From UHGV virus genome UHGV-0101699: 64,000 bases of DNA; one strand, written 5' to 3'. This document shows positions 17,495 through 56,030 of this stretch, piece by piece. The first letter of the stretch is position 1, and every line of letters starts with the position of its first letter. Below the pieces are notes generated by a model. The model did no database searches, was not told the origin of the DNA, and worked only from the letters and a program-made list of their open reading frames with translations. Made by a program: the position numbers and the translations under genes. The stretch is from a virus.

Positions 17495-18088
17495 TTAAGC
17501 AGCCTGTTTCCGTGGTCTTTTTTTCCTGATCACTTTGGCAGGATCGTAACCACCCAGACTTTTCATCACTGTCAGCGGGACTTTATTCATGAAGTGACCA
17601 GCGTTCTGACAGAATCCGCGGAAGACCACCAGCATACTTCCGCCTGGGTTGATATTGACTTCAACCAAACCCAATGTGACGTCTGGTTCCATGAACGCTA
17701 CGCGGCCGCCAGAAAGAACTACCGTCTGGTTTGCGCACTCGGTGGCGCGCTCATACCACATCGTGTCGAGCGATTGCGGAATGAGCATAACGGTGGTTAC
17801 ACCACGCGCTTGCTCTCGGATAGCCGCCTCTATCCAGGGGGTTATTTTGGAGTAGGGCGGGTTGAGAAAAGCCACCGTTCCAGGATCACCCCAGCTGGAC
17901 TTAAGAGCATCTCGTTCCACACCTATGTAGCTTGGAAGAAGCGCGTTTTCTTTGTTACAGGCGACATCAACATCAAACGTAATGCCGAGATATCGCTGAA
18001 TGGCGACAAACAACCATTTCGGTGTGCGCCAAAGGTCTCGAAGAGAGGCATCTCGCTCTCGCTTTTTGATTTTTTCGGCTGCTATCAT
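17495..18088 (-). CDS. phage-type DNA N6-adenine methyltransferase (Dam-like)
   Basis: WRTPKWLF ... FDVDVACN ... LNPPYS motifs typical of the phage Dam_N6 family; ATG at 18088 (the ORF-track TTG at 18100 is less likely). Confidence 0.75.
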   Translation of the reverse strand: MIAAEKIKKRERDASLRDLWRTPKWLFVAIQRYLGITFDVDVACNKENALLPSYIGVERDALKSSWGDPGTVAFLNPPYSKITPWIEAAIREQARGVTTVMLIPQSLDTMWYERATECANQTVVLSGGRVAFMEPDVTLGLVEVNINPGGSMLVVFRGFCQNAGHFMNKVPLTVMKSLGGYDPAKVIRKKRPRKQAA

Positions 18089-18272
18089 TTTACAATCCAA
18101 TAGGTAAGTACTTACCTATTTTTTCATGTCATCTTACGAATGGCAAATAAAGAAAAAACACGCCAGATTGCTTAACGGGAGACGCTCTGGCGTGTTTTTT
18201 ACTGTTGGGGCATACGAATAACTGTCCAACGCTCTAAAACTATCAGGGGGCTTCAGAGCGCGAAACGGATCG

Positions 18273-28497: not shown

Positions 28498-29067
28498 TTA
28501 TAAAATCCCTTTAAGAACGTCGCGCACTTGTCGGAACTGGTCTGTCTGCATTCCAGAATATATCGAAGCTATGGCATCAGCCAGGTGCTCATTCTTGGCA
28601 ACGAGTACGTCTTTTCCCGCTTGTTTCCGACGCAACCAAGGGGCATCAGGCTGTTTTGCAATCGCCCACTGGATGATCTCTTCTTTAGATGTGGTCAGTT
28701 TATTCCCGACGTAGTGCTTAATTTCATTTGGCGTAACCTGGATAAGTGGCTTATCAACGCAAGCAAGAACACCGATACACACACCGTAAGAAGTCTGCGC
28801 GCGAGAGCTTTGACTACCTACCGGCAGTTCACAAAACACTATGTGGGCCTGTTCAATGATGGGCCTGGCGGTGCGCCAGATCTCTTTGGCCCGGCGCAGA
28901 TCATCGCTGTTTACTCTGACGGTTTTCTTCGTTCCGCCGGCTTTGGTTTCAACCAGTTCAAGACCGTGGATTTCAAGTTTGTCTGTATCCAGATCCAGCG
29001 TACCAATGGCCAGCCCGAAGTTGCTCATTGAAGGGTCGACGCCAACTACTTTGATCACTTTACTCAT
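28498..29067 (-). CDS. RuvC-like Holliday junction resolvase
   Basis: N-terminal VVGVDPSMSNFGLAIG and downstream acidic residues typical of phage RuvC/A22 resolvases. Confidence 0.6.
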   Translation of the reverse strand: MSKVIKVVGVDPSMSNFGLAIGTLDLDTDKLEIHGLELVETKAGGTKKTVRVNSDDLRRAKEIWRTARPIIEQAHIVFCELPVGSQSSRAQTSYGVCIGVLACVDKPLIQVTPNEIKHYVGNKLTTSKEEIIQWAIAKQPDAPWLRRKQAGKDVLVAKNEHLADAIASIYSGMQTDQFRQVRDVLKGIL

Positions 29068-29823: not shown

Positions 29824-31729
29824 AGCTGCGACCCTCTTTCACTTCCACTGTGATGGTTTCCCGGAACCATGACTTCATTTCTTTGTGAGAGATGATCATC
29901 ACCGTGCCGCGCTCGCGCGCTTTTGCTTCCAGAATACCCATCAGACGCTCCAGCCCGGCAGTATCCAGCGCATCGTCAATTTCATCACCGATAAACAGCT
30001 CGATGTTCTTGCTCGCGCGGCTGGCCACCAGATCCTGCAGAGCCAGGGAGCACGCAATGCGCACTTTGCGTTTTTCGCCACCTGACAATGTCTGGAAGGT
30101 TTTGCTGGCGCCGATCTTGCGCACGCTGATATTGAACTTATCGCGCCATTCGCCCTTCTTGGTTGATTCCATCGTTGACCATTCCGCCACAATGTTTCCG
30201 TCCGACAGTGTATTGAGATATTCCGCTGTCTGGGCATTCAGGAAAGGCGTCACGGAGGTCAGGATGTGCGAGCGAACGCCGGCAGGAGAGTAGACCTGGC
30301 GCGCTTTATCAAGCAGCAGAGCCTGCTCCTGTATATTCTTTAACTCAGTTTTAAGTACACCATAGTTAGATTTATTGGCAGCCAGGCTTTCTTCATGGCG
30401 TTTGATGACAGCCAGAAATGGGTTAGTTTCTTTGGTAATGCGATCTACTTCGCTCCGCGCCCGGGCAACCAAAGCTTCTACAGCTACGACTTCTTTTTCC
30501 CGATGACGAAGCGTTCCCAGCTCTTTAGTCAGTTGTTCGATTCGGGAAATAATGGCAGACACATCTGGTGTACTGGCGACAAGTGATGATTCAATTTTGA
30601 GCGCCTTCTCAAGATGCTCTTGGTATTTAGCCACTGACGTTGCAGATGCCTGCGCTTGGCTGATCTCACTGCGCGCCTGTTCAACAAAACTCTCCTTCAC
30701 GATGGACAGATCTTCAACGCAATAAGCCTTGCCACAGGTAGGGCACGGCTCTCCGACTTTGGTATTTACTTCTTCCGCTTTCACCTTGAGTGCGCGAGCA
30801 CGTTGCATCGCTTCCTTCTGGATGTTTTCGGTAATGCGGATGCTGGCACGTATATCAGTGATCGCTCCACGAACCTTAACCAGCTTGGCGTCATGTTCTT
30901 CTTTGGACGCAAGTTTTTCCCGCTCTTTACCGATGGCATTTTCAGTATCGCGGATCTGCTCTGGCAGACTGCGCAACTCCATTTCGACCTCAGTGAGCGT
31001 GACTTCCGCCCCAACCAGATCGGCACGGGCGACATCAAGCCGTTTGCTGCGGTCTCGCTCCCAGGCTTCAGAAGAGGTTTTGGCAGACTCCAGCTCATTC
31101 TGGGCCGATTCGACCAGAGACAAGCAGGCGTCCATCTTGGTTTTAGTGGTCTCCATGCGTGCGGCAGCTGCGTTGGCTCGTTCGCGAGCAATCGCGTAGG
31201 CTTTGGTGAGACGATCGACGCCGGCAGCCTCTTCTACGATGGTTTTGAGGTTTTTATCCGACATGCCAGGCAAATCAGGCATCGCCTCCTGACTGGCGTA
31301 GATCGATGCCATAAATACTTCTTTTGACGCACCGATCAGTCGCTCTACAAACTCCTGGGTGAGCGAATCTTTACCCTTTGTCATGTCGCCGTCTTCGCCA
31401 CGGACAATAAGCCGGTTTTTAAATTCCTTATGCTTGCGGTGACGGATAATGGCGTAGCGTTTACCTTCGTCTTCAATGGTGACTTTTACTCGACAGTTCT
31501 TCTCATGGCCCGTAGAGAGAACGTCGTCACCTTTAACGCCATGGGATGTCTCGCCATAAATACACCACATCAAACTATTCATGAGGGTTGATTTGCCAGC
31601 GCCATTGCTGGCGGCCGATGAGTCCCCGGCATTAACACCCTGGATGAGCACCAGCCCACGCTGATCAAGCTCGACCTTGGCGTTTGCCAGCGCCATGAAG
31701 TTTTCCACTTCGAGCGTTAAAAATTTCAT
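29813..31729 (-). CDS. SbcC/Rad50-like ATPase (recombination nuclease subunit)
   Basis: Walker A NGAGKST at N-terminus, long coiled-coil with CPTC zinc hook, C-terminal signature/Walker B. Confidence 0.8.
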   Translation of the reverse strand: MKFLTLEVENFMALANAKVELDQRGLVLIQGVNAGDSSAASNGAGKSTLMNSLMWCIYGETSHGVKGDDVLSTGHEKNCRVKVTIEDEGKRYAIIRHRKHKEFKNRLIVRGEDGDMTKGKDSLTQEFVERLIGASKEVFMASIYASQEAMPDLPGMSDKNLKTIVEEAAGVDRLTKAYAIARERANAAAARMETTKTKMDACLSLVESAQNELESAKTSSEAWERDRSKRLDVARADLVGAEVTLTEVEMELRSLPEQIRDTENAIGKEREKLASKEEHDAKLVKVRGAITDIRASIRITENIQKEAMQRARALKVKAEEVNTKVGEPCPTCGKAYCVEDLSIVKESFVEQARSEISQAQASATSVAKYQEHLEKALKIESSLVASTPDVSAIISRIEQLTKELGTLRHREKEVVAVEALVARARSEVDRITKETNPFLAVIKRHEESLAANKSNYGVLKTELKNIQEQALLLDKARQVYSPAGVRSHILTSVTPFLNAQTAEYLNTLSDGNIVAEWSTMESTKKGEWRDKFNISVRKIGASKTFQTLSGGEKRKVRIACSLALQDLVASRASKNIELFIGDEIDDALDTAGLERLMGILEAKARERGTVMIISHKEMKSWFRETITVEVKEGRSYVV

Positions 31730-33231: not shown

Positions 33232-33726
33232 TCAGCGTGGGTTGCGGAAAAGCAGTTGTGTGCCAGTGGGGCTGGTATCAACAAGATGAAAGCCACGGCG
33301 CTTAAGCATTTCAGCCATTTTTGTCGATTTGACGTAACACTTTGCCATCATTGGTAGTGGTGCGTTTGAGTCAATCATATCCGACAGGAACATCGAACCA
33401 TATCCTTTACCCTGCATAGATTTGGTGATACAGAAGGTACGGAGTTCAAGACGTTGATATCCAGCCGGATCAATCTCAGGAGTAAACCAGATCAGGCCAA
33501 TTTTTTTATCGTCTGAACGACGAAGCAGGATGAAGATGAAATGGCCTGACTCACCATTAGCGTCGCGAATCTTAATGGCTTCACGCATTTGTTTTTCAAA
33601 CTTCTTCCCACCGGCTTGCGTGATGATCTCATTTGTAAAGTGACCAAGACGTGCTCCTTCCTCGAATTCATGCATCAGAAAGGGCATATCAGCCAGAGTA
33701 ATCTCTCTTGAGTAAAAATCGTCCAT
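33232..33726 (-). CDS. GNAT family N-acetyltransferase
   Basis: Acetyl-CoA-binding motif QGKGYGSMFL and beta-strand pattern typical of GNAT. Confidence 0.6.
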   Translation of the reverse strand: MDDFYSREITLADMPFLMHEFEEGARLGHFTNEIITQAGGKKFEKQMREAIKIRDANGESGHFIFILLRRSDDKKIGLIWFTPEIDPAGYQRLELRTFCITKSMQGKGYGSMFLSDMIDSNAPLPMMAKCYVKSTKMAEMLKRRGFHLVDTSPTGTQLLFRNPR

Positions 33727-33801: not shown

Positions 33802-34446
33802 TTAGGGTTCGTCAGAGAGCTTCTGACGCGCATTTGCGATGCTAAAAACTTCTGCTTTTGGCCGAGGGTCGACTAAATCGAGTTCTGCTTCGCTGTGATA
33901 CTCGATATCAAAGTCCCGTTTGATGTGTCTGATGTAAATCGCTGTGAGCAGGCTGTCTTCTTTCAGGAAGTGGCCATAGGATCGGCGGATCACTTCACCT
34001 ACTTTTTCGATCTTCTCTCCGCCCATACAGAGGTGATTGAATCGACTGTGCTTTCTCAGCATTTCATCAACTGGCCCAGAGTAAACCTTATCCACGACAC
34101 CGAATCGAAGGATCTTCGCAGTATCAGCTTCAACCAGGCAGACAATCTTCCCCTCGGTCAATCTGTCACGCCAGGTAACGCCTGAACGCATAGTGTTGAA
34201 GTAGGGGGTATCCAGACCGATGATCGGTTTTCGAAATGCCAGCAGCGGTACGTATCTGGCACAGCTGTTCAGGTGGAAGTTAACGCCGGCGTCACGCAAC
34301 TTGAGTCGGGTCTCGTTGATGTTGCACTTCGAGGCTATGCCACACAGGCTGCAGAGAACCTTCTCGTTGCTCAGTGTGGAGTTTGATTCTATGGTGTAGG
34401 TTCCGTCTTCCAGACGGCGTACCCAACGTGTGCGTTTTAAGTCCAT
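33802..34446 (-). CDS. hypothetical protein (214 aa)
   Basis: ORF. Confidence 0.55.
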   Translation of the reverse strand: MDLKRTRWVRRLEDGTYTIESNSTLSNEKVLCSLCGIASKCNINETRLKLRDAGVNFHLNSCARYVPLLAFRKPIIGLDTPYFNTMRSGVTWRDRLTEGKIVCLVEADTAKILRFGVVDKVYSGPVDEMLRKHSRFNHLCMGGEKIEKVGEVIRRSYGHFLKEDSLLTAIYIRHIKRDFDIEYHSEAELDLVDPRPKAEVFSIANARQKLSDEP

Positions 34447-34523
34447 GTTCTCGTTTTAGTGATTGTTGACCGGAACCACGATAGCTTACTAGGCACACCT
34501 GTAATCGCAAATGCCTGTTTTAC

Positions 34524-34540
34524 TTATCCACTTATCCACT
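34524..34540 (+). promoter_or_regulatory. two tandem DnaA boxes (TTATCCACT x2)
   Basis: 8/9 match to TTATCCACA consensus, overlapping tandem. Confidence 0.6.
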
Positions 34541-34545
34541 GGTTA

Positions 34546-34604
34546 GATCCCAATAATAAGATCCCTATACAGATCCCTATATAGATCCAAAGAGATCCCC
34601 GATC
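34546..34604. repeat. cluster of six GATC sites in AGATCCC(T)ATA-type repeats (Dam-methylation-dependent origin element)
   Basis: GATC at 34546, 34560, 34572, 34584, 34594, 34601. Confidence 0.6.
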
Positions 34605-34645
34605 GCCGCAGGCCGCGCCACGCCTGGGCTAAGGACTGATCCGTG

Positions 34646-34746
34646 TATGCTGTCAGCGGTAAACGATATGCTGTCAGCGGTACGGTATATGCTGCCAACG
34701 GTTTTGTGTATGCTATCAGCGGTAATTGACGTATGCTGTCAGCGGT
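34646..34746. repeat. five 15-bp iterons (TATGCTGTCAGCGGT, about 21-bp spacing), origin/incC-like
   Basis: Copies at 34646, 34667, 34687 (variant), 34709 (variant), 34732. Confidence 0.8.
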
Positions 34747-34766
34747 TAGAACCAAAAGGTATCCAC

Positions 34767-35864
34767 ATGTCCACAAGAAAGAAAAAAGAGAGCGATATCA
34801 AAGAAATACCTGAAGATAACGAAATTCTTGAGGAAGAAGCTCTCACTTTGTACACAGGTGACTTAGTTCCTAACAGCAACAATACGGTGCAGCCAATCGC
34901 TTTAATGCGTCTTGGCCTCTTTGTGCCGACACTCAAAGGAACGAAAAATAGCTCTCGCAACAAGTCCAACATGATCGACGCATCCAGAGAGCTTGTCCAG
35001 CTGGAAGTCGCGCGGTCAGAGGGTTATTCAAACATTAAAATCACCGGTCCGCGACTGGATATGGATCATGATTTCAAAACCTGGGTTGGTGTTGTTCGCT
35101 CTCTGGCTGAATACGGCGAGCCAACCGGGCGCGTAGAGCTGAGCATAACGAAGTTCGCCAAGTTCTGCGGCTACCCGTCCTCGCAGATCCGCAAAACCCT
35201 GCGAGACCGCCTGACAAACAGCCTGCTCAAGATCATGCGCACGACGCTGTCGTTCCAGCGCACTCATGAAGAGAAGAACGTCGACGACACCAACAAGATA
35301 TCCCTGTTGATGGTTCACCTCATAAACAGCGTTGATTACAACGAGAAGAAAGACTCTATTGTCTTTTATGCTGAACCTAAGCTGTCTGAGCTCTATCGCT
35401 TTGACCACAAAGTTCTGCTGCAGTTAAAGGTCATCAACAAGCTCCCGCGCAAGGAGACGGCCCAGGCGCTGTATACTTTCATCGAAAGTCTTCCTCCTAA
35501 GCCGGCACCGGTATCTCTTGCCCGGCTGCGCGCCAGGCTCAATCTGAGCACGCGCAACGTCAGCTCGCAAAACCAGACTATCAGGAACGGATTGAAGTCA
35601 CTGCAAGAGCTGGGCTATCTCGAATATAGCGAGGTTAAGCGTGGCCGTTCTGTCTACATCCAGATCCACAGTCGTAACCCAAAACTGAAAGTAACATCGA
35701 GCAAACCCGAGAAGCCAGAGGCGCCTAAGCAGGCAGAAGAAGCGAAGGGTGAAATTGATGCGAAACAGAACCTCAAAAACAAAATTTCTGAGCTGTCGCA
35801 GAACCTGACGCCAGAGAATATCAAGCTGATCGAGATACTCACCAATAGCCTCAAGTTGCTTTGA
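34767..35864 (+). CDS. repA: plasmid-type replication initiator (iteron-binding RepA-like)
   Basis: 365-aa plus-strand gene bracketed by iteron arrays, after DnaA boxes and GATC cluster; basic protein. Confidence 0.7.
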   Translation: MSTRKKKESDIKEIPEDNEILEEEALTLYTGDLVPNSNNTVQPIALMRLGLFVPTLKGTKNSSRNKSNMIDASRELVQLEVARSEGYSNIKITGPRLDMDHDFKTWVGVVRSLAEYGEPTGRVELSITKFAKFCGYPSSQIRKTLRDRLTNSLLKIMRTTLSFQRTHEEKNVDDTNKISLLMVHLINSVDYNEKKDSIVFYAEPKLSELYRFDHKVLLQLKVINKLPRKETAQALYTFIESLPPKPAPVSLARLRARLNLSTRNVSSQNQTIRNGLKSLQELGYLEYSEVKRGRSVYIQIHSRNPKLKVTSSKPEKPEAPKQAEEAKGEIDAKQNLKNKISELSQNLTPENIKLIEILTNSLKLL

Positions 35865-36131
35865 TACGCTGTCAGCGGTTCAACATATGCTGTCAGCGGT
35901 TCTTTTGTCTCAATGTATGCTGTCAGCGGTAAAACGTATGCTGTCAGCGGTACATTTCCACTATCTGCGGTCTTTATAAATCGACATGGCTAACGTCTAA
36001 GGGCAACTGCTGCCCTATGAATGTATGCTGTCAGCGGTGAAAGATATGCTGTCAGCGGTAAAACGTATGCTGTGAACGGCACAAGGTATGCTGCCAGCGG
36101 TAATTCACTGTCAACGTATGCTGTGAGCGGT
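35865..36131. repeat. nine to ten iterons in two sub-clusters (incA-like copy-control array)
   Basis: TATGCTGTCAGCGGT and variants at 35865, 35886, 35916, 35937, 35959 (degenerate), 36024, 36045, 36066, 36087, 36117. Confidence 0.8.
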
Positions 36132-36315
36132 AATACAGCGCTGGATTAGATATCCTGAAAACGGGCGACGCAGTCGTTGCTTTGCGTCAGGCCCGTGTAG
36201 ATAACAATATGGCTTCCCCAGTGGTCACTAACCGGCTAACCCGCATGAATGCTAGGTTAGTGGTTACTAACAAATGTTATTCCATCACGCTTAAAACGCG
36301 CTGCAGAAACATCGG

Positions 36316-36528
36316 TTAGTGGATCTGCTTGAGCAAACCCCAAAGCGTTTGTGCTTTCGATGTGAGTTTCCCGGTTTCAGGATCAAACATGCGCCATTCC
36401 CTACGCTGGTGGATGATGTAACCGTCTTCGCGTTCCAGACGCTCCAGCATGTCCGGTTTTCGGAAGCCTTTCGCTCTCCAGTAGCCGCTTGTTTTCTCAA
36501 TCTCAAGACCAGTCATTGTGAGAGCCAT
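36316..36528 (-). CDS. hypothetical small protein
   Basis: 70-aa ORF. Confidence 0.4.
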   Translation of the reverse strand: MALTMTGLEIEKTSGYWRAKGFRKPDMLERLEREDGYIIHQRREWRMFDPETGKLTSKAQTLWGLLKQIH

Positions 36529-39575: not shown

Positions 39576-41921
39576 TTACTCGATGGTTTCTGTAGTGCCA
39601 GAAGACAGGTCTTTAGCTCGACGTTCGTCGATGGCCTGTAGCGCCGCAATGATCTCAGGAAGGGGCTTATCACGATACATGTCGACTATCTGCGATTTGG
39701 TGTACTTCTTGTCGCCAATCTCTACGCGGCCGCTGGCATTCTTTGGCAGGTATCCTTCTTCGAGCATGTGCTCAACCAGTGACTCGATAACGTCCAGACC
39801 GCGGGTCGGGTCGAAGTAGAATTTCCATGAGCATTTGCCGAATGGCGGTGCCACTTTGTTTTTGATGCACTCGGCGCCAACGTCCTGACCGATCTTATCT
39901 TTGCCATCCTTCATGACAGAAGCGCCAAGACGAATACGTACTGAGGCGTAGAACTTCGGAGAATCACCACCAGGGGAGGTGGTCGGATCGCCAAACATCA
40001 CGCCGATTTTTGTACGAACCTGGTTAAGGAAAATAATGCAGGCATTGTACTTGCGCGCCCATAGCGCCAGCGTTGGAAAGTTGGCGCTCGTGGCGCGAGC
40101 CAGGGCCGTATTATCGTTCATGTTTAGCTGATCTTTATCCTTCGCTGTACCTTCCGCCATTTTGTCGAACTTCTCGGCTTTGGAGTTTGGCACCATTGAC
40201 GCAAGGGAGTCGGCTACGATGCAAATAGGGGCGTCTGCGGGGATCAGCTCTTCGTCTCGCACCAGTTTCAGGATGGTGCCGATCAGCTCAACCGATTCTT
40301 CGAATGTGTCCGGCTGCTTATAGACCCACTGGCCGTCATCCTCATCCGCATTCAGCCCGTTTGCCACCGCCAGACCAACGTCAAAGCTGTTTTCGTGGTC
40401 GAGGAATACAGCCAGACCCTCCTGTTTCTGAGCGGAGACCATGGCGGCCGTCGCCAGGAATGTGTTGTGGCTGATAATCCCGTTAGACCAGAAAGAGTGT
40501 GTTTCCGGCATCGCTACGTCGAACGTTGGTGCTTCACCTTCCTCAATAGCCACGACTTCGTCGTAGAACAAGTTAGAGTCAATTACCGCTGCCAGTTGTG
40601 CAAACAGATGCTCGTTAAAACGATTCTTTCTGCCAATGAAGGAGACATAGATTTCTCGCAGTTTGTCTATTCCGACACGATCGCCGCGGCCAATAACGTG
40701 ATCTACCAGAACGTAGTCTTTACGAGAGGTCTTGGTGAGTGACTCGTAGAGTGATTTCACTAAGCCGCTGATGTGCGGAACGTAGCCTAAATAAGTGCGG
40801 TCAAAACTAATGTCCCGTTTGGTTGCCACTGCTAAACGAGCCGGAGACTCGAACCCAATCGTTGACAGGAAAAGGTCGTAGTTAGAGCCACTGAATGACA
40901 GCCGGTAATATATGTTTTTATAACCTGCGACGTGTTTTTCAGAGATAGTTGACGTAATCCCCAGATTCAGGAGCATGAGGCGAATTTGCTGTAGCAGCAG
41001 CCCACTCGCGCTCACAACCTCAATGCAGCGACCATCATTGACGTGGCATTCCAGCTCAAAGTAGCCGCGAAGGAATGCAATTTGAGCCTCGCTATTGGCG
41101 CGACGCACACTCAACGGAACCTGCTTGCCAGCAGCTTTCTCATACTCCAGACCATATTCTTTAAAAAGCAGCGAACGCACCTCTTTGCTAAACAGCACAT
41201 GGTCTTCCGAGCCGTTATGTTTTCTCGTAACTGGCATCTTGTCTGATACCAGCGAAATGAGGCGGTAGTACTCATCCTTGATGAATGGATCTGTGTTAGA
41301 AAAATGCACAGAATTTTCAGAGGCCACGTATCCGTCAGCAATTAAATAGCCCATCAGTTTTGCGATATTGGCATCCAAGTGCTGATCGCCGAATTGATGT
41401 GTGCCAACCATTGAAGGAATCGTGTCGCCTACACTGATTTTTTCAGCATACCGCCAGACGATATTGCCTAAGTCGTCAACCACACGAATTGGGTGACGGA
41501 ACGTAGCCTCGATGTAACCCCCTGATGCCAGCTTAATGCGCTTGAATTTGCGACGGTTGTTCCATGTCAGGTGTGAGGTCTTCTCTATCACGCCATTTTC
41601 ATTGATGAGTCCAACGTTATGCTCTACATCGCGAGTAGTGCATGTTGCTTTGTGCCCCTCAATCTCAAACAGTTCTTTCACTGTTACCATTCCACGCTCC
41701 GTCAGCAGCATGGTGTCTGCGGTAACACATTTCCCCGCACTTGGCGGCCCAAAGATCTCAACGATACGTCCGCTTGGGAAACCGCCGTCATAGCGCCCGG
41801 AGATGGCTTTATTCAGCGGAGGGAAGCCGGAATCAATCCAGTGTGAAACCTTTTGGATCTCGTCATTGCTGCCGATTTTCTTTTTTAATGCCATTGCCAG
41901 TGCTGATTTTCCTTTTGCCAT
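39576..41921 (-). CDS. recA: RecA-like recombinase interrupted by a 422-aa intein
   Basis: N-extein RIVEIFGPPSAGK and C-extein TFLATA ... LFINQVRTKIGVMFGDPTTSPGG ... KFYASVRI ... KNKVAPPF collinear with E. coli RecA (359 aa when joined). Confidence 0.85.
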   Translation of the reverse strand: MAKGKSALAMALKKKIGSNDEIQKVSHWIDSGFPPLNKAISGRYDGGFPSGRIVEIFGPPSAGKCVTADTMLLTERGMVTVKELFEIEGHKATCTTRDVEHNVGLINENGVIEKTSHLTWNNRRKFKRIKLASGGYIEATFRHPIRVVDDLGNIVWRYAEKISVGDTIPSMVGTHQFGDQHLDANIAKLMGYLIADGYVASENSVHFSNTDPFIKDEYYRLISLVSDKMPVTRKHNGSEDHVLFSKEVRSLLFKEYGLEYEKAAGKQVPLSVRRANSEAQIAFLRGYFELECHVNDGRCIEVVSASGLLLQQIRLMLLNLGITSTISEKHVAGYKNIYYRLSFSGSNYDLFLSTIGFESPARLAVATKRDISFDRTYLGYVPHISGLVKSLYESLTKTSRKDYVLVDHVIGRGDRVGIDKLREIYVSFIGRKNRFNEHLFAQLAAVIDSNLFYDEVVAIEEGEAPTFDVAMPETHSFWSNGIISHNTFLATAAMVSAQKQEGLAVFLDHENSFDVGLAVANGLNADEDDGQWVYKQPDTFEESVELIGTILKLVRDEELIPADAPICIVADSLASMVPNSKAEKFDKMAEGTAKDKDQLNMNDNTALARATSANFPTLALWARKYNACIIFLNQVRTKIGVMFGDPTTSPGGDSPKFYASVRIRLGASVMKDGKDKIGQDVGAECIKNKVAPPFGKCSWKFYFDPTRGLDVIESLVEHMLEEGYLPKNASGRVEIGDKKYTKSQIVDMYRDKPLPEIIAALQAIDERRAKDLSSGTTETIE
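40464..41729 (-). mobile_element. intein with LAGLIDADG homing-endonuclease domain inserted in the RecA Walker A motif
   Basis: Starts with Cys (CVTADTML), ends SHN followed by Thr; LMGYLIADGYV and LRGYFELECHV dodecapeptide motifs. Confidence 0.8.
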
Positions 41922-45472: not shown

Positions 45473-45914
45473 ATGCTACTTTTCTACCGAAAATGTTTGA
45501 TAGAGTGACTCTGGTCTGCCTCTTAAGCCGGTATCTTCTGACGTCGCCTATCTTGCTCACCTCCATGAACTCCTTGGCCACCTTCAGGACAAGACGGGCA
45601 CGGAACGCTTTAAATGAAGCCAGCTCTTCTTCTGGTTTGTCAGATTCATAAATCTCCAGAAGATATTGGCACGCCTTTGGATCTTGCGTTTTTAAAGCCA
45701 GCGCACGCGCGCATTTCCGTAATCGACAAATAGGGTCGGCGCCATCCTGCTTTGCAAACGCCAATGCCAGATCGAGCGTGACAGGGCAGTCAATGATTTC
45801 CCAGAACTGGGATCGCAGAGTGGCTTCAATCGCCTTCTCCTGAAACTCCTGTGGTATTGCTGTGAGCTCTTGAGCAATTTTATCCGCTGCGCTCATGTGT
45901 TTTCCTTTACTCAT
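45471..45914 (-). CDS. hypothetical protein (147 aa)
   Basis: ORF coupled downstream of the DnaE C-terminal fragment. Confidence 0.5.
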   Translation of the reverse strand: MSKGKHMSAADKIAQELTAIPQEFQEKAIEATLRSQFWEIIDCPVTLDLALAFAKQDGADPICRLRKCARALALKTQDPKACQYLLEIYESDKPEEELASFKAFRARLVLKVAKEFMEVSKIGDVRRYRLKRQTRVTLSNIFGRKVA

Positions 45915-47080
45915 TTGTTAATAGTCTCCGCAACCTCTGCCAGAATGGCTTCCAGCTTTTCTCCTTCCTCTGGACGGAAGTACAAAATATTCGGGTTAAA
46001 TCCATAGAACACGGTCACGTCCAGGTCTGGCAGATATTCTTTGCGCCCAACAAGATCGGATGGCTTGCTCTTGTTATTAAACAGCGATGTCGCCCGGCTG
46101 CCGCACGTCAGCACGTAAGTTGGACGAACCAGATTTATCTCTTCCCGCATAAAGTCGATAAACTGGCCGATCTCATCTTTGGTGTAGTCTTTTTCCTTAT
46201 CCTTTACCTTTTTACACACGCCTGTGACATACAAATCACCCATACGCAGGTCACCAGAAACCAGCAACTTGGCTTTGAAGTCATCGTAGCCGTTCTCCAT
46301 GAAGTAGCCGGTACGTGCATCATTGCCATTGGCGTTGTCGAGTATGACCATAATTTTTGGCTTAATGCCGATGCTTGGTCGTATCAACTCATCGCCCAGA
46401 CCCATTTCTGCGGCCATGCGAGTCATCAGCACATTGACCTCTGCAGAGCGTTTTGGGTTCATTTCAAATGGGCGTGAAGCTTTCACCGCATCGATCACCA
46501 GATTGCCCATCAGCTCTGCCTGATCGCGCAGACGTTCCGGATCGGTCGCCGGCATACTGCCAGGTTCAATAGAGGCGAATGCACCAACCTTTTGTAGAGA
46601 CTCACGTACTCGGCTGTTACAGGCTCGCTTCTCGACCGCTTCCTCAAATTGCTCAAGTGACTCGAATTTGCCGCCAACTTTCTCACGCGCTCTCATGATG
46701 GCCTGGCAACCATTCTCAGAGCAGCCTTTCACAGCAGAGAATGGCGCATACAGAACCTGGCTGCCGTCTTCCAGCGTGCGGATCTCAATTCGGTTAGATG
46801 ACACGTTAACGTCTGGTGGCAATACGCGAATGCCATAGGTCAGCGCATCCTTAACCAGCCCCTGGTGCTTATCCTCGCCCAGAATGGTGAGAGCAGCAGC
46901 GAAGAACTCAGCAGGGTAATGTGTCTTTAACCACATAGACTGATAGCTGATCAGCGAGTAGGCAACGGAGTGTGATTTGTTGAAGGCATATCCACCGAAC
47001 TTCTCAAAGGCGTCCCATACTTCTTGGGCTTTCTCAGGGCTAAGACCTTCCTGCTCGGAAATAACTTTGGCAATTTTCAT
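45911..47080 (-). CDS. dnaE: DNA polymerase III alpha (DnaE-type) C-terminal fragment
   Basis: FGGYAFNKSHSVAYSLISYQSMWLKTHYPAEF matches the DnaE motif region around residue 800 onward; OB-fold tail. Confidence 0.85.
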   Translation of the reverse strand: MKIAKVISEQEGLSPEKAQEVWDAFEKFGGYAFNKSHSVAYSLISYQSMWLKTHYPAEFFAAALTILGEDKHQGLVKDALTYGIRVLPPDVNVSSNRIEIRTLEDGSQVLYAPFSAVKGCSENGCQAIMRAREKVGGKFESLEQFEEAVEKRACNSRVRESLQKVGAFASIEPGSMPATDPERLRDQAELMGNLVIDAVKASRPFEMNPKRSAEVNVLMTRMAAEMGLGDELIRPSIGIKPKIMVILDNANGNDARTGYFMENGYDDFKAKLLVSGDLRMGDLYVTGVCKKVKDKEKDYTKDEIGQFIDFMREEINLVRPTYVLTCGSRATSLFNNKSKPSDLVGRKEYLPDLDVTVFYGFNPNILYFRPEEGEKLEAILAEVAETINK

Positions 47081-47802
47081 GTGTTTTTCCCGTCATTAGC
47101 TTCAAACGCTAGCTTTTTTAAGATATTTGCGATTTGAGTGTTAGAGATGCCGAATTTTTCTCGCAACTTTTCATAGGTTGCGCCAGCCTTGCGCAAGGCG
47201 ACCACCTCAGCTCTTGCTTCAGCATCCAGTTTTTTGGATGCTCTTGAGACAACGATCGGCCCACCAACTCGTGCCCATTTCTTCCCGGTGACGATATGGT
47301 GAATGTAAAGCTCAGTTAAACCATATTCGGCCGCGAGGTCTTTGTTCAGAGCGCCTTCTGACTTTTTAATGCGAATAGCAATGACGACTTCGTTGGTTAG
47401 CTTGGCGTTGTAGCGCCTCTCACCAAACTCAACGGTATCGTGTGCAATGGCGTCAGCCATGTTGTCGACTTGAGTGCCATACGCGAGATTGGAGGGCGCA
47501 TTGTTTGATGGTCTTCCGTCAAGATGACGAATAAGTAAGCCTTCTGGTCGTTCTCCGTGGAATGCAGTTGCTACCAGATAATGGACTGTGCGGTCGCATT
47601 TGACGCCGTTGACGCTTAGTTTCACGCCCAGATGTCCAAAATCATTGATTACGCGAGGTTTGAGGATTTGCCCCTTCTTCACCCATTCGCCCCCATTGGG
47701 GGCTGTTCGTATAACATCTAAAGAGCGAATGCGACCTAAACTGGATGCTTCGTAATAACCTTCAAACTCAGGAATGGATTTCCAAATTTCTTCCACCGTC
47801 AA
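47077..47802 (-). CDS. HNH homing endonuclease (NUMOD4/HNH_3 type) inserted within dnaE
   Basis: EFEGYYEASSLGRIRSL N-terminal module; HYLVATAFHG ... RHLDGRPSNN HNH motif; ATGA start/stop overlaps with both dnaE fragments. Confidence 0.8.
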   Translation of the reverse strand: MTVEEIWKSIPEFEGYYEASSLGRIRSLDVIRTAPNGGEWVKKGQILKPRVINDFGHLGVKLSVNGVKCDRTVHYLVATAFHGERPEGLLIRHLDGRPSNNAPSNLAYGTQVDNMADAIAHDTVEFGERRYNAKLTNEVVIAIRIKKSEGALNKDLAAEYGLTELYIHHIVTGKKWARVGGPIVVSRASKKLDAEARAEVVALRKAGATYEKLREKFGISNTQIANILKKLAFEANDGKNT

Positions 47803-50162
47803 ACTCCAAAATCAACAATATCAGCGTTATCACCAATCGCTTCGTCATAGGTTCTGCGTTTGCCGTCAGAGCACATCAGCTTGGCCTTTTTGTGGACTTC
47901 TACTGTGCTTCCGTTTTCAAGTGACAGTGTCACCCAACCTGCTTGCGCTCGTTCTACAAAATCGCTGCCGATCGCTTTCATCTTATCCATGTTCTTTTTA
48001 CCGATAGCGGAACGCAGAGCGTCAGCCTCAGCCATAGAGAATCCAGCGAGTACGCGAGAGCTTTTCATGATCTGCTCTTGATAGAGTAAAACGCCGTTGG
48101 TTTCTTTAGTTGCTTCCTCAAGACGCGGATGAATTGAATGTGGAGCCATAAAACCTTTTGCCACGGAGACATAGTCGTCCAACATGCCTGACTGAATTGG
48201 ACCTGGTCTGAAAAGCGCAGTTGTGGCCACAATGGTTTTGAAGCTCATTGGCTCGATACCACCACCCAGATCTTTGAGTAGCTTCCTCATGGGGCCGGAC
48301 TCAAGCTGGAACACACCTTGCGTATACCCCGCGGCGAATCCATCAAGTACTTTGCGATCATCCAGTGGGATGGCATCGAGGTTGACGTCCTTACCGGTGC
48401 TCTCTTTGATGTAACGTTTTGCGCTATCCAGCAGATCGAGAGTGGCCAGGCCCAGAACGTCCAGTTTGATCAGCCCCATGGCCTCGCAGTATCGTTTATC
48501 GAATGCGATGCAACGCGCGTCTCCACGTCGCTCTACAGGGGTACGTTCCGTCAGAGGTACGCCAGCAACAATCATCCCTGCAGCATGGCGGCCGAAGCCA
48601 CGCATCAGGTTTTGCAACTTGCTCGCCGCCTTAAATGCGTCCGGATGTTTGGTGGCGTACTTGTCCAGGCTGGCCAGCTGCTCGCGCAGCTCCGACAGAG
48701 ATAAACTGTCATCCTCCAGGGTCTTTAGCTCCTTGGAAACAGCCATATCCGCCGCATCAACTCCATAAATACGCGCTGTGTCGCGCAGTGCGGAAGCGGC
48801 GCCCAGATAAGTGAAGTTCGGAATGCCTGCAACATACTCTTCGCCATATCGGGCATTCAGATACTCGATCACCTCATGGCGCCGCGCCTGGCTAAAGTCC
48901 AAATCCGCATCCGGCAAGTCGAGACGTTCAGGGTTAATGAAACGTTCGAACAGAAGACCATGACGGATTGGGTCAACGTTAGTAATGCCGATGCACCATG
49001 CCACCAGAGAGCCGGCGGATGAACCACGACCTGGCCCGACAGGAATACCAGTCTCGCGACTATGATTCATCAGATCGCGAACCATCAGGAAATAACCGCA
49101 GAATCCCAGGCGAGTGAGCGTTTCCATTTCATACTTGAGGCGATCGACGTAAATGCGGTGCTCGGAAGCTGGTGGCGTGTAGCCAAATTCTTTGTTGCTG
49201 AGACGTTTTCGAAGCCCTGCGACAGCCAGTTTCATCAACGTTGCAGGCTCATCGTCTGCCATTTTTGGCAGCGCCGGCGCCATCTCGTGCCAGCGCCATT
49301 CGCACGCCTTAACAATGGAGTCCTGCGTTGTAGAAGCCATGGCGGCAGACACAGATACGCCCATCCGGACAGAAAACTCTTTCAGAGCCTGCAGCAGATG
49401 ACGGCGACCATTTATTGCATTGTCGCGCTGGTGGGGGATACGCAGCCGGTGTGGCTGATCGACTTTGATATTGTTCATCACCATGTGGGCGATGTCTTTG
49501 ATGTCAGCGTCATCAACCCCTTCGTAATAAGCTGGGTAAAACGCAACGGGCTCGATTTTCAGTGCGCTTGCCACTTTCATGGCTCGCACGTTGATCTGGT
49601 CATAGAATGGCGTAGGGTGTGGATATACGACGCTGTAGAAATTATCGCGTCCACCGGCAGTAATCAGCGCACTAATAATTTTAGCGAAGTCCGGGCGCTG
49701 GAATACGCTGCCGATATCCGAAGTCAGTAACAGTATATTGCCTTTAGCGTATGTAGCCGCCAACTGGTCGAGCGCCAGGCGTGGCACGAAGTAAAACTGC
49801 TCGCGGGTATTGGCTAAAGTCATTAGTTCGCAAATGTCGCGATAACCTTGCTCGTTTTTAATCAGTGCGGTGAAGCAGTAGTTACGTCCACGCTCCAATG
49901 ATTCCATACATCCATTAGACTCTTTAGCCAGTTTAGCCCGGTACTCGTATGTTGGATCGTCGACAACATTCAGCTTAACACCACAGATCACCGCCATCTC
50001 ATCGCCAGCTGCTCGTTGCAGGGGGATAACGCTGGCGATATTCATCGTGTCAGCAGAGATAACCGCGGTATAGCCAGCCTCCTTTGCCACCTTTACTGCG
50101 TGCTCTGCTTTCAGTGCTGATTCTCCCAGGGAAAAATCAGTCCTGACCATCAGTGCTTTCAT
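47799..50162 (-). CDS. dnaE: DNA polymerase III alpha (DnaE-type) N-terminal fragment (PHP + polymerase core)
   Basis: PHP-domain N-terminus; GPGRGSSAGSLVAWCIGIT polymerase motif; ends with a 40-aa tail with no counterpart in E. coli DnaE. Confidence 0.85.
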   Translation of the reverse strand: MKALMVRTDFSLGESALKAEHAVKVAKEAGYTAVISADTMNIASVIPLQRAAGDEMAVICGVKLNVVDDPTYEYRAKLAKESNGCMESLERGRNYCFTALIKNEQGYRDICELMTLANTREQFYFVPRLALDQLAATYAKGNILLLTSDIGSVFQRPDFAKIISALITAGGRDNFYSVVYPHPTPFYDQINVRAMKVASALKIEPVAFYPAYYEGVDDADIKDIAHMVMNNIKVDQPHRLRIPHQRDNAINGRRHLLQALKEFSVRMGVSVSAAMASTTQDSIVKACEWRWHEMAPALPKMADDEPATLMKLAVAGLRKRLSNKEFGYTPPASEHRIYVDRLKYEMETLTRLGFCGYFLMVRDLMNHSRETGIPVGPGRGSSAGSLVAWCIGITNVDPIRHGLLFERFINPERLDLPDADLDFSQARRHEVIEYLNARYGEEYVAGIPNFTYLGAASALRDTARIYGVDAADMAVSKELKTLEDDSLSLSELREQLASLDKYATKHPDAFKAASKLQNLMRGFGRHAAGMIVAGVPLTERTPVERRGDARCIAFDKRYCEAMGLIKLDVLGLATLDLLDSAKRYIKESTGKDVNLDAIPLDDRKVLDGFAAGYTQGVFQLESGPMRKLLKDLGGGIEPMSFKTIVATTALFRPGPIQSGMLDDYVSVAKGFMAPHSIHPRLEEATKETNGVLLYQEQIMKSSRVLAGFSMAEADALRSAIGKKNMDKMKAIGSDFVERAQAGWVTLSLENGSTVEVHKKAKLMCSDGKRRTYDEAIGDNADIVDFGV

Positions 50163-54554: not shown

Positions 54555-54935
54555 ATGACAATGGCCGATGAGAAGACCGCTCGTTACGTCGCCTACATCG
54601 ATTCTTTAATCACTGTTTCGCCGAAAAGTCAGTCGGCGATCTCCCGTGAGATTGGTTACAAGAATCCCAACATTTTGTCCCTGATAAAAAAGGGAAGAAT
54701 TCCGCTGCCGGTAGAGAAAGTGCTACCACTGGCAGAAGCACTGAATGCAGACCCAGTACGTCTCATGATGATGGTTCTTGAAGACCGTCAGCCTGAGCTG
54801 GCAGATTTTTTACGAGACCAGGGCATAGCGCCGCTGACTCCGGAAGAACGTGAGGTTCTCGCAGCTTTCCGCAACCGCTTTCCGGCTCAAACTGATGGTG
54901 TTGAGCAGGTTGTGGAAGCAATTAAAAAGCTATGA
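54555..54935 (+). CDS. HTH DNA-binding protein (XRE/Cro-like)
   Basis: SQSAISREIGYKNPNILSLIKKGR helix-turn-helix; plus strand, convergent with recombinase. Confidence 0.55.
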   Translation: MTMADEKTARYVAYIDSLITVSPKSQSAISREIGYKNPNILSLIKKGRIPLPVEKVLPLAEALNADPVRLMMMVLEDRQPELADFLRDQGIAPLTPEEREVLAAFRNRFPAQTDGVEQVVEAIKKL

Positions 54936-56030
54936 GAAGTTTACTCTGATCAGCTCGGTGGATAGGCGATCTCCCTTCATTTTGTGGTCAATTTCTTCTA
55001 AATCTGGTTGCTCAACAATCGACGAGATGTACGATGAGAAGCTCTCAAGGGCTTCTCGCATCTGATCCATGTAGTCATATCGGTCGTATACACGGTCGAT
55101 ACCTTCCAGACTATGATTCATGATCTTACGTGATACTTCCTGAGAAATATTAAGGGCTGGAAAGTAGCTGCGTGCCGTTCTACGCAGATCACGTGGGGTA
55201 AACGACTCCACTTCCCCAAGCTCTGGTCGCTCTAGAATCCGCCTCAACGCCTGGGCTATTGCAACCTTTGACATTGGCGTATCAGCTTTCTTTTTGTTCG
55301 ACGGGACGAGCCACTGGCTGCCGGCGCCATAAGCAATCAATTCTTCTACGCACTTCCGCATCAGTGAGCTCATCGGAAGGGTGTGCGACCGGGCCGATTT
55401 GTTGCGAGACCCTTGATTCCATACATTTAGCTTAAGGTCGAACTCGCTTACTCTGGCCCGCAGCACTTCATCTGGACGTCTGGCAGCTACGAGGCAAAGC
55501 CTTGCCGCCCATTTCGTGCCTGGACATACGTCGAAATAGTCCCAGACATTCCAGAATACCCAAACCTCTGCGTCCGTCAGGCATCGTTCCCGCGGGGCCG
55601 TCTTCGCGCCGCCGGCAACTTTGTTCAGCGACATATCATTCAGGGGCGATGTTTCGATAATTCCCTGGAAGGCACACCATCCCAGGAACTGCTTCATGAT
55701 GGAAAAAACACGGCGACCCATCACGATCTTCCCTTCAAGGATCAGCGGGTTGACCAGCTGATTCACCATTATTCTATTCAGGTTACTTACTTTTTCCTGA
55801 GCGATATGCGGGAGAACATGTATCAAAACACAATGGACAGCTATCTCGGGCCGGCGGCGAGTTATCAATAATGATAAGCGAGTGAATAACATGAATGCGT
55901 CGGCGAAAGTCAGATCGGCTCCCTGCATCGAGACCGATCTGGCATCCATCTGCGATGCCCGATCCAGATAGGTGATCGCTTCCTGTGACGTGTTTTCCGC
56001 TGCGCGTGCTCTGTCAAACGTGTTTTTCAT
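54930..56030 (-). CDS. tyrosine site-specific recombinase
   Basis: C-terminal catalytic domain with R ... HxxR ... Y pattern (ARRPDEVL, SHTLPMS, RDLRRTARSY ... Y). Confidence 0.8.
   Translation of the reverse strand: MKNTFDRARAAENTSQEAITYLDRASQMDARSVSMQGADLTFADAFMLFTRLSLLITRRRPEIAVHCVLIHVLPHIAQEKVSNLNRIMVNQLVNPLILEGKIVMGRRVFSIMKQFLGWCAFQGIIETSPLNDMSLNKVAGGAKTAPRERCLTDAEVWVFWNVWDYFDVCPGTKWAARLCLVAARRPDEVLRARVSEFDLKLNVWNQGSRNKSARSHTLPMSSLMRKCVEELIAYGAGSQWLVPSNKKKADTPMSKVAIAQALRRILERPELGEVESFTPRDLRRTARSYFPALNISQEVSRKIMNHSLEGIDRVYDRYDYMDQMREALESFSSYISSIVEQPDLEEIDHKMKGDRLSTELIRVNFS

Follow-up and report, generated by a model that had tools for sequence, protein, structure and literature searches.

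The 64,000-nucleotide stretch of the virus genome UHGV-0101699 analysed here (the window; one strand, 5′ to 3′) contains, between positions 34524 and 36131, a compact module of replication signals arranged around the gene repA. The gene lies on the plus strand (34767–35864) and encodes RepA, a 365-aa putative iteron-binding initiator of the two-winged-helix (WH1–WH2) kind with a C-terminal tail of about 55 aa. In order, the module comprises two DnaA boxes, a cluster of GATC (Dam) sites, a GC-rich spacer, five iterons, repA, and nine further iterons in two clusters. An earlier note on this DNA, made from the letters alone, had described such an arrangement, had likened it to the oriR/repA/incA layout of the plasmid replicon of phage P1, and had proposed a phage-plasmid lifestyle. 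The boxes, sites, and iterons that it had counted are all present. As far as the open reading frame (ORF) list goes, the note is also right that repA has no other sizeable plus-strand gene beside it within about 30 kb: from about 10 to 63 kb, every other plus-strand ORF of 130 aa or more is nested in a longer minus-strand ORF.

The left end of the origin is formed by the DnaA boxes. The letters at 34524–34540 read TTATCCACTTATCCACT and contain two DnaA-box-like 9-mers, TTATCCACT, on the plus strand (34524–34532 and 34532–34540), with one T common to both; the exact TTATCCACT has only one further copy in the 64 kb. The GATC cluster follows (34545–34604, plus strand; 40% GC), with six sites, at 34546, 34560, 34572, 34584, 34594, and 34601, spanning 59 bp (34546–34604). 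Of the six clustered sites, five belong to AGATCC[C/A] heptamers. Six GATC per 70 bp is a density reached at the origin alone, the window average being 5.2 per kb, and the cluster is the densest of the window; a seventh GATC is located at 34638. By analogy with related origins, the GATC-heptamer segment is presumed to be the region that is unwound and that is controlled by SeqA and Dam. The spacer (34605–34645, plus strand) has the heptamers on one side and the iterons on the other, and its composition is about 71% GC over 34601–34645. The DnaA boxes and GATC heptamers are thus placed at the rep-distal end of the origin, as in the P1/RepFIB family. A third DnaA-box-like site, GTATCCACA (34759–34767, plus strand; 8/9 matches), overlaps the repA start codon, and we infer from its letters a role as a DnaA box.

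The five origin iterons have the core TATGCTGTCAGCGGT (34646–34746, plus strand) and are the equivalent of P1 incC. They start at 34646, 34667, 34688, 34709, and 34732, with a spacing of 21/21/21/23 bp, and are helically phased direct repeats, the last of which ends 20 bp before the repA ATG. Downstream of repA, cluster 1 (35865–35951, plus strand) contains four copies, at 35865, 35886, 35916, and 35937, the first of which begins at the base directly after the repA stop codon, and cluster 2 (36024–36131, plus strand) contains five copies, at 36024, 36045, 36066, 36087, and 36117. Where the earlier note had counted about nine downstream iterons in two sub-clusters, the two clusters together thus hold exactly nine, from 35865 to 36131, all oriented like the origin iterons. 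By analogy, the nine-iteron array would be the equivalent of P1 incA, a putative copy-control array. A search for TATGCTGTCAGCGGT (15 bp, at most three mismatches) gave 17 matches, compared with 1.6 expected and a shuffle maximum of 5 (n = 100); 14 of the 17 fall in 34646–36131, every one on the plus strand, and 8 of these 14 are perfect copies. A weak additional candidate, with 10/15 matches, is present at 35957.

The repA gene starts with an ATG at 34767, preceded by AAAGG, and its stop codon ends at 35864. The relation to Rep_3 initiators that the earlier note had suggested is borne out by a hidden Markov model search: the 365-aa protein matches Pfam Rep3_N (PF01051, WH1 domain) with E = 1.4e-8 and 35.6 bits, above the gathering cut-off of 22.4. 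In pairwise BLASTP comparisons, RepA is 45% identical to P1 RepA (residues 20–284 of 286, E = 1e-84) and 51% identical to the 325-aa RepA of the classical RepFIB replicon (P307, F, and pO157-type; E = 1e-110), which has the same kind of C-terminal tail. A like tail is present in the RepA of Salmonella phage SSU5, to which the identity is 53% by tblastn and 47% in a global alignment. A tblastn search against phage genomes found RepA matches in six Klebsiella phages at 99%, in E. coli phage-plasmids at 87%, and in P1 and P7 at 42% (E = 9e-65).

An AlphaFold2 model of RepA, built from 37 homologues, has a mean predicted local distance difference test (pLDDT) score of 72, with 79–92 over most of core residues 71–210, and comprises two winged-helix-like α/β modules, then a disordered linker, then two C-terminal helices. 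In a Foldseek search against the PDB, the top matches are domains 2–3 of RctB (E = 5e-7) and RepE of mini-F (E = 2e-5), followed among the further best matches by the MSBI1.176 WH1 domain, TrfA, and pPS10 RepA. The modelled fold is that of a two-winged-helix (WH1–WH2) initiator; we treat the fold match as supporting, not primary, evidence, because the global template-modelling (TM) scores are modest.

A longer form of the protein was considered and rejected. A start annotated in the manner of the Prokaryotic Genome Annotation Pipeline (PGAP) lies at 34647, in iteron 1, and would give a 405-aa product, for which PGAP-style annotations of relatives use the name 'RepB family'. The extra 40 residues (34647–34766, plus strand), MLSAVNDMLSAVRYMLPTVLCMLSAV, are translated iterons and read as MLSAV...MLSAV repeats. 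Since all relatives show homology only from about residue 30 of the 365-aa form onwards, the 405-aa start was rejected, and, on this sequence evidence, the 365-aa start is the credible one.

For the comparison with P1 we used the curated record AF234172. In that record, a DnaA site is followed by five Dam sites and then by five incC iterons of 19 bp (21/21/21/22 bp), among which the promoter PrepA is embedded; next come repA, the nine iterons of incA, of which the first overlaps the repA stop codon, and parA-parB-parS. The order of parts and the numbers of iterons are the same as here (two DnaA boxes, five iterons, repA, nine iterons), and the likeness of the origin core extends to its DNA: window positions 34518–34645 are 81% identical to P1 oriR (104/129 columns), with a shuffle maximum of 51%. 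In particular, the P1 DnaA protein_bind site, TTATCCACATTATCCACT, aligns with the DnaA boxes of the window; the GATC cluster aligns with the five Dam sites annotated in P1 oriR; and the P1 spacer, GCAGGCCGCGCCACG(C/T)CTGG, is nearly identical to the spacer of the window. P1 has five GATC sites, and not six as here, because its second heptamer is AGGTCC. P1 carries a DnaA-like box, CTATCCACA, between its iterons and repA; the window has GTATCCACA upstream of repA.

Outside the origin core, the two replicons diverge. The P1 iterons, GATGTGTGCTGGAGGGAAA, are unrelated in sequence to TATGCTGTCAGCGGT, so that the iterons of the window are not of the P1 type. The RepA of the window exceeds P1 RepA by about 12 residues at the N-terminus, by an insert of 8 residues, and by the C-terminal tail of about 55 residues. 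The virion genes of P1 are unlike those of this element, which are siphovirus SSU5-like. A tblastn search with P1 ParA and ParB found nothing within the 64-kb window, which rules out a complete P1-like rep-par cassette; small minus-strand genes come after the downstream iteron array. Judged by these comparisons, the replicon is of the P1 kind, yet distinct from the P1 (IncY) replicon proper.

The classical RepFIB replicon, for which the E. coli IncFIB plasmid CP088425 served as comparator, provides a second reference point. Its 325-aa RepA is encoded on about 4000 plasmids, mostly from E. coli, and the example examined is IncFIB/IncFIC and conjugative. Like the module of the window, it has an upstream DnaA box with GATC heptamers, and iterons that flank rep. 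It differs from the window in three respects: its iterons are of the ACATAAGCTGTGG type and in mixed orientation, whereas those of the window are TATGCTGTCAGCGGT and all direct; a leader of about 250 bp separates its upstream iterons from rep, unlike in the window; and its carriers are conjugative F-type plasmids, not phages. In FIB replicons, rep is flanked on one side by an iteron block associated with the origin and on the other by a control block downstream, and the downstream block alone gives the strongest displacement and incompatibility, which fits handcuffing (PMC11983097).

Phage-borne relatives share the plan and differ mainly in their iterons. SSU5 is the closest characterised phage relative and has the same neighbour genes on both sides; specifically, the genes that adjoin the replicon of the window correspond to SSU5_062–073. 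The SSU5 iterons are of another type, CCACTGTAGAGAG, with the downstream ones in both orientations, and in SSU5 the DnaA-box/GATC-heptamer/iteron module occurs twice in tandem upstream of repA (JQ965645, 2740–2970 and 3120–3380); the proximal origin copy contains several degraded GATC heptamers (AGAACC, AGACCC). Cronobacter phage JK004 has the same overall plan, but with P1-type iterons. The E. coli phage-plasmid PhiR41_1 has the same TATGCTGTCAGCGGT core, in five upstream and about nine downstream copies, and a RepA that is 85% identical, and carries GTGTCCACATG where the window has its third DnaA-like box. The GATC-heptamer motif is also found in SSU5, PhiR41_1, JK004, and the classical RepFIB origin. 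Because RepA is slightly closer to the RepFIB and SSU5 RepA proteins than to P1 RepA, we prefer a P1/RepFIB label, and the precise label, as far as sequence comparison defines it, is P1/RepFIB family, IncFIB(pKPHS1) type.

The closest relatives of the module identify the element that carries it. The 1.7-kb module is 98–99% identical to six deposited 'Klebsiella phage' records and to upwards of 300 circular plasmids. In all, 334 plasmid records match (301 over at least 80% of the query), comprising 316 from Klebsiella and 325 classed as non-mobilizable; the best-matching plasmid records listed are mostly 106–128 kb in size. The closest, CP110742 (pINF192.5), is a 110-kb circular plasmid that is 99.2% identical and is typed by MOB-suite as IncFIB with no other replicon listed. 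The likeness extends beyond the replicon: the surrounding 24 kb is 98–99% identical to Klebsiella plasmids of about 110 kb. In the pKpn-group examples pJN2-26 (MZ779062), ST13-OXA48phi12.3 (MK422451), and pINF192.5, the replicon is without substantive difference from that of the window; differences from these Klebsiella relatives are confined to the flanks, where the genes are otherwise the same. In pJN2-26, the part equivalent to the window contains replication and nucleotide-metabolism genes, and the part outside it contains terminase, portal, capsid, tape-measure, tail-fibre, and lysis genes. Circular plasmids of about 110 kb and phages are thus both represented among near-identical elements.

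IncFIB(pKPHS1) is a replicon name of PlasmidFinder, and its assignment to the window was made through this near-identity to typed elements. pKpn-group elements are typed FIB(pKPHS1) (PMC9241755), the group belongs to the SSU5 supercommunity, whose members are mostly typed IncFIB (PMC7969092), typing databases already include the rep genes of SSU5 (IncFIB) (bioRxiv 10.1101/2025.09.12.675607), and the related p2 plasmid of Kp1604 has been both studied and cured (PMC8969562). We conclude, with a probability of roughly 0.92, that the module serves a Klebsiella phage-plasmid of the SSU5-like pKpn group as its plasmid-prophage replicon, and that this replicon, of type IncFIB(pKPHS1), is a theta replicon under iteron control and belongs to the P1/RepFIB family. 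The phage-plasmid lifestyle proposed in the earlier note is corroborated by the near-identical circular Klebsiella plasmids, the six phage records, and the synteny with SSU5.

Several observations weigh against this assignment, or against carrying it over from P1 in every detail. First, P1 incA consists of three direct and six inverted iterons, and the nine control iterons of the window are all direct. Second, P1 parA-parB-parS adjoins incA, and here the partition genes are not adjacent to the control array. Because of these two differences, details of control may differ from P1. Third, an NCBIfam scan of RepA gives no family, and a PDB sequence search with RepA gives chance hits only (E > 0.5), for which reason RepE and RctB were reached through the fold search. 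Fourth, the global TM-scores of the RepA model to RepE and RctB are low (0.25–0.42), because domain orientation and disordered ends differ. Fifth, a consensus scan of 34400–36400 detected no plus-strand σ70 promoter for repA, and autoregulation of repA through a promoter within the iterons would be proposed by analogy only. Inspection by eye of the spacers equivalent to P1 PrepA gave no convincing −35/−10 elements, and the P1 −35/−10 hexamers are not conserved there. The best local hexamer, TTGACG at 34726, is not conserved in PhiR41_1. The earlier note's reading of the locus as a P1-type replicon is supported, with refinements: order, numbers, RepA homology, and the 81%-identical core agree with P1, and the iterons, the all-direct array, the lack of adjacent parAB, and the RepA tail do not.

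A mechanism can be drawn by homology with P1 oriR/repA/incA and RepFIB; all its biochemical steps are put forward on that analogy, as are a low copy number and a dependence on Dam. RepA monomers would occupy the five helically phased iterons (34646–34746), and host DnaA would occupy the boxes at 34524–34540 and perhaps also the box at the repA start. Together, RepA and DnaA would open the AT-richer GATC-heptamer segment (40% GC), at which the host helicase and replisome would load. In P1, opening of the origin takes DnaA plus RepA, and chaperones turn RepA dimers into active monomers (PMC5043065). RepA bound to the origin iterons would also repress the repA promoter, and the nine downstream iterons would titrate RepA and handcuff with the origin iterons, which would result in low copy number and incompatibility. 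Firing would require Dam-methylated GATC sites, and SeqA would then sequester the hemimethylated sites and so time re-initiation. Work on P1 by Abeles, Austin, Brendler, and Chattoraj is said to have established that the GATC heptamers need Dam methylation and that SeqA binds them when they are hemimethylated.

The element encodes a methyltransferase of its own that may bear on this scheme. A phage-type, Dam-family N6-adenine methyltransferase gene is located at 17495–18100 (minus strand; PF05869, E = 2.5e-35), and its product might keep the six origin GATC sites methylated without host Dam. With its own Dam-family enzyme and its all-direct control iterons, the phage-plasmid might control its origin differently from P1.

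An improbable alternative is that the RepA/iteron origin serves mainly lytic (vegetative) replication of the phage, not plasmid maintenance. The setting of the origin would suit such a role: it sits among genes for an SbcCD-like nuclease, a RecA-like recombinase, a gp32-like single-stranded DNA-binding protein, a 5′–3′ exonuclease, and the DNA polymerase III (Pol III) alpha subunit, and primase and helicase genes are present in relatives. The homologous P1 oriR and RepFIB, however, are copy-controlled maintenance replicons (PMC11983097), a run-away lytic origin would need the opposite of a nine-iteron negative-control array, and the closest relative is a plasmid of about 110 kb for which no other replicon type is listed.

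More improbable still is a non-functional, relic replicon, with an unrecognised origin elsewhere maintaining the element. The model for this would be the weakly expressed FIB replicon of plasmid F, which is poorly functional (PMC11983097), and the failure of the consensus scan to detect a promoter would agree with it; yet the repA ORF is intact, 8 of the 14 iterons are perfect, the module is 98–99% conserved in more than 300 plasmids, the architecture is kept in the E. coli relative with an 85%-identical RepA, and the close relative is reported with no further replicon type.

Finally, the iterons could be read as attL/attR attachment sites of an integrating prophage, as they are annotated in MZ779062.1, where two 20-bp 'attL/attR' features (28912–28931 and 30182–30201) fall exactly on iterons either side of rep, and the element does have a tyrosine-recombinase gene (54930–56030), but we give this reading next to no credence, because the repeats number 14 and not two, keep a 21-bp phase, form two arrays that flank a Rep_3 initiator, and adjoin DnaA boxes and a GATC cluster in the layout of P1 oriR/incA, and because the relatives are circular plasmids, not integrated prophages; a repeat-based att finder almost certainly produced the att annotation as an artefact.

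With the module read as a plasmid-maintenance replicon, the feature as such is already known: it is a database-typed replicon, present on hundreds of sequenced plasmids, of a recognised phage-plasmid group. Mildly new, in a descriptive sense, are the combination of an 81%-identical host-factor module with unrelated iterons, the all-direct control array, the corrected repA start codon, and the mis-annotated att sites. Since the origin core is 81% identical to that of P1, RepA 45%, and the iterons unrelated, a modular evolution of the origin might be envisaged, in which a host-factor module was separated from a specificity module by recombinational exchange or by unusually strong constraint; we consider this doubtful. 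No new biology is implied.

The chief value of the analysis is correct annotation, as it marks the contig as an SSU5/pKpn-type phage-plasmid. Elements of this type are frequent in clinical Klebsiella and at times wrongly recorded as 'cryptic plasmids' or integrated prophages, and the map of the replicon corrects two recurrent database errors, namely the 405-aa RepB call and the placing of 'attL/attR' on iterons. It also yields predictions: the common iteron core, TATGCTGTCAGCGGT, would make the element incompatible with those E. coli relatives that have it, such as PhiR41_1, and it is predicted to be compatible with P1 and classical FIB plasmids. These incompatibility predictions could be used in the design of curing cassettes.

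The surroundings of the replicon are those of a phage replication region. Pfam scans of the ORFs of the window identified an SbcCD-like pair, a RecA-like recombinase, a gp32-like single-stranded DNA-binding protein, a 5′–3′ exonuclease, and Pol III alpha, and also RNase H, Dam, and a tyrosine recombinase. The RecA-like gene (39576–41921, minus strand; 781 aa) carries a LAGLIDADG homing endonuclease within an intein (Pfam RecA 3.8e-37, LAGLIDADG_3 4.5e-18, Intein_splicing 1.7e-11); the corresponding gene of close relatives is intein-less and encodes about 357 aa. Pol III alpha (45911–50162, minus strand) is divided into two abutting ORFs (47799–50162 and 45911–47080), split by a 241-aa HNH/NUMOD4 homing-endonuclease ORF (47077–47802); the gene in pJN2-26 is undivided and 3519 bp long.

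A GNAT acetyltransferase gene (33232–33726, minus strand) is found two genes upstream from the origin, a position that it also has in SSU5. Some Klebsiella relatives have in its place a 1.56-kb DUF4041 gene on the opposite strand, and the spot looks like a variable cargo site beside the replicon.

In the MZ779062.1 record, the likely partition locus of pJN2-26 (71881–72908) consists of a small ParA gene (221 aa) and, after it, an ORF of 120 aa; it is located far from the replicon, in a part outside the window; two genes with ParB-N domains are located elsewhere than ParA in that record (34817–36165). In the window, the tyrosine recombinase (54930–56030, minus strand; Phage_integrase, E = 1.7e-9) may act as a Cre-like multimer resolvase, not as an integrase.

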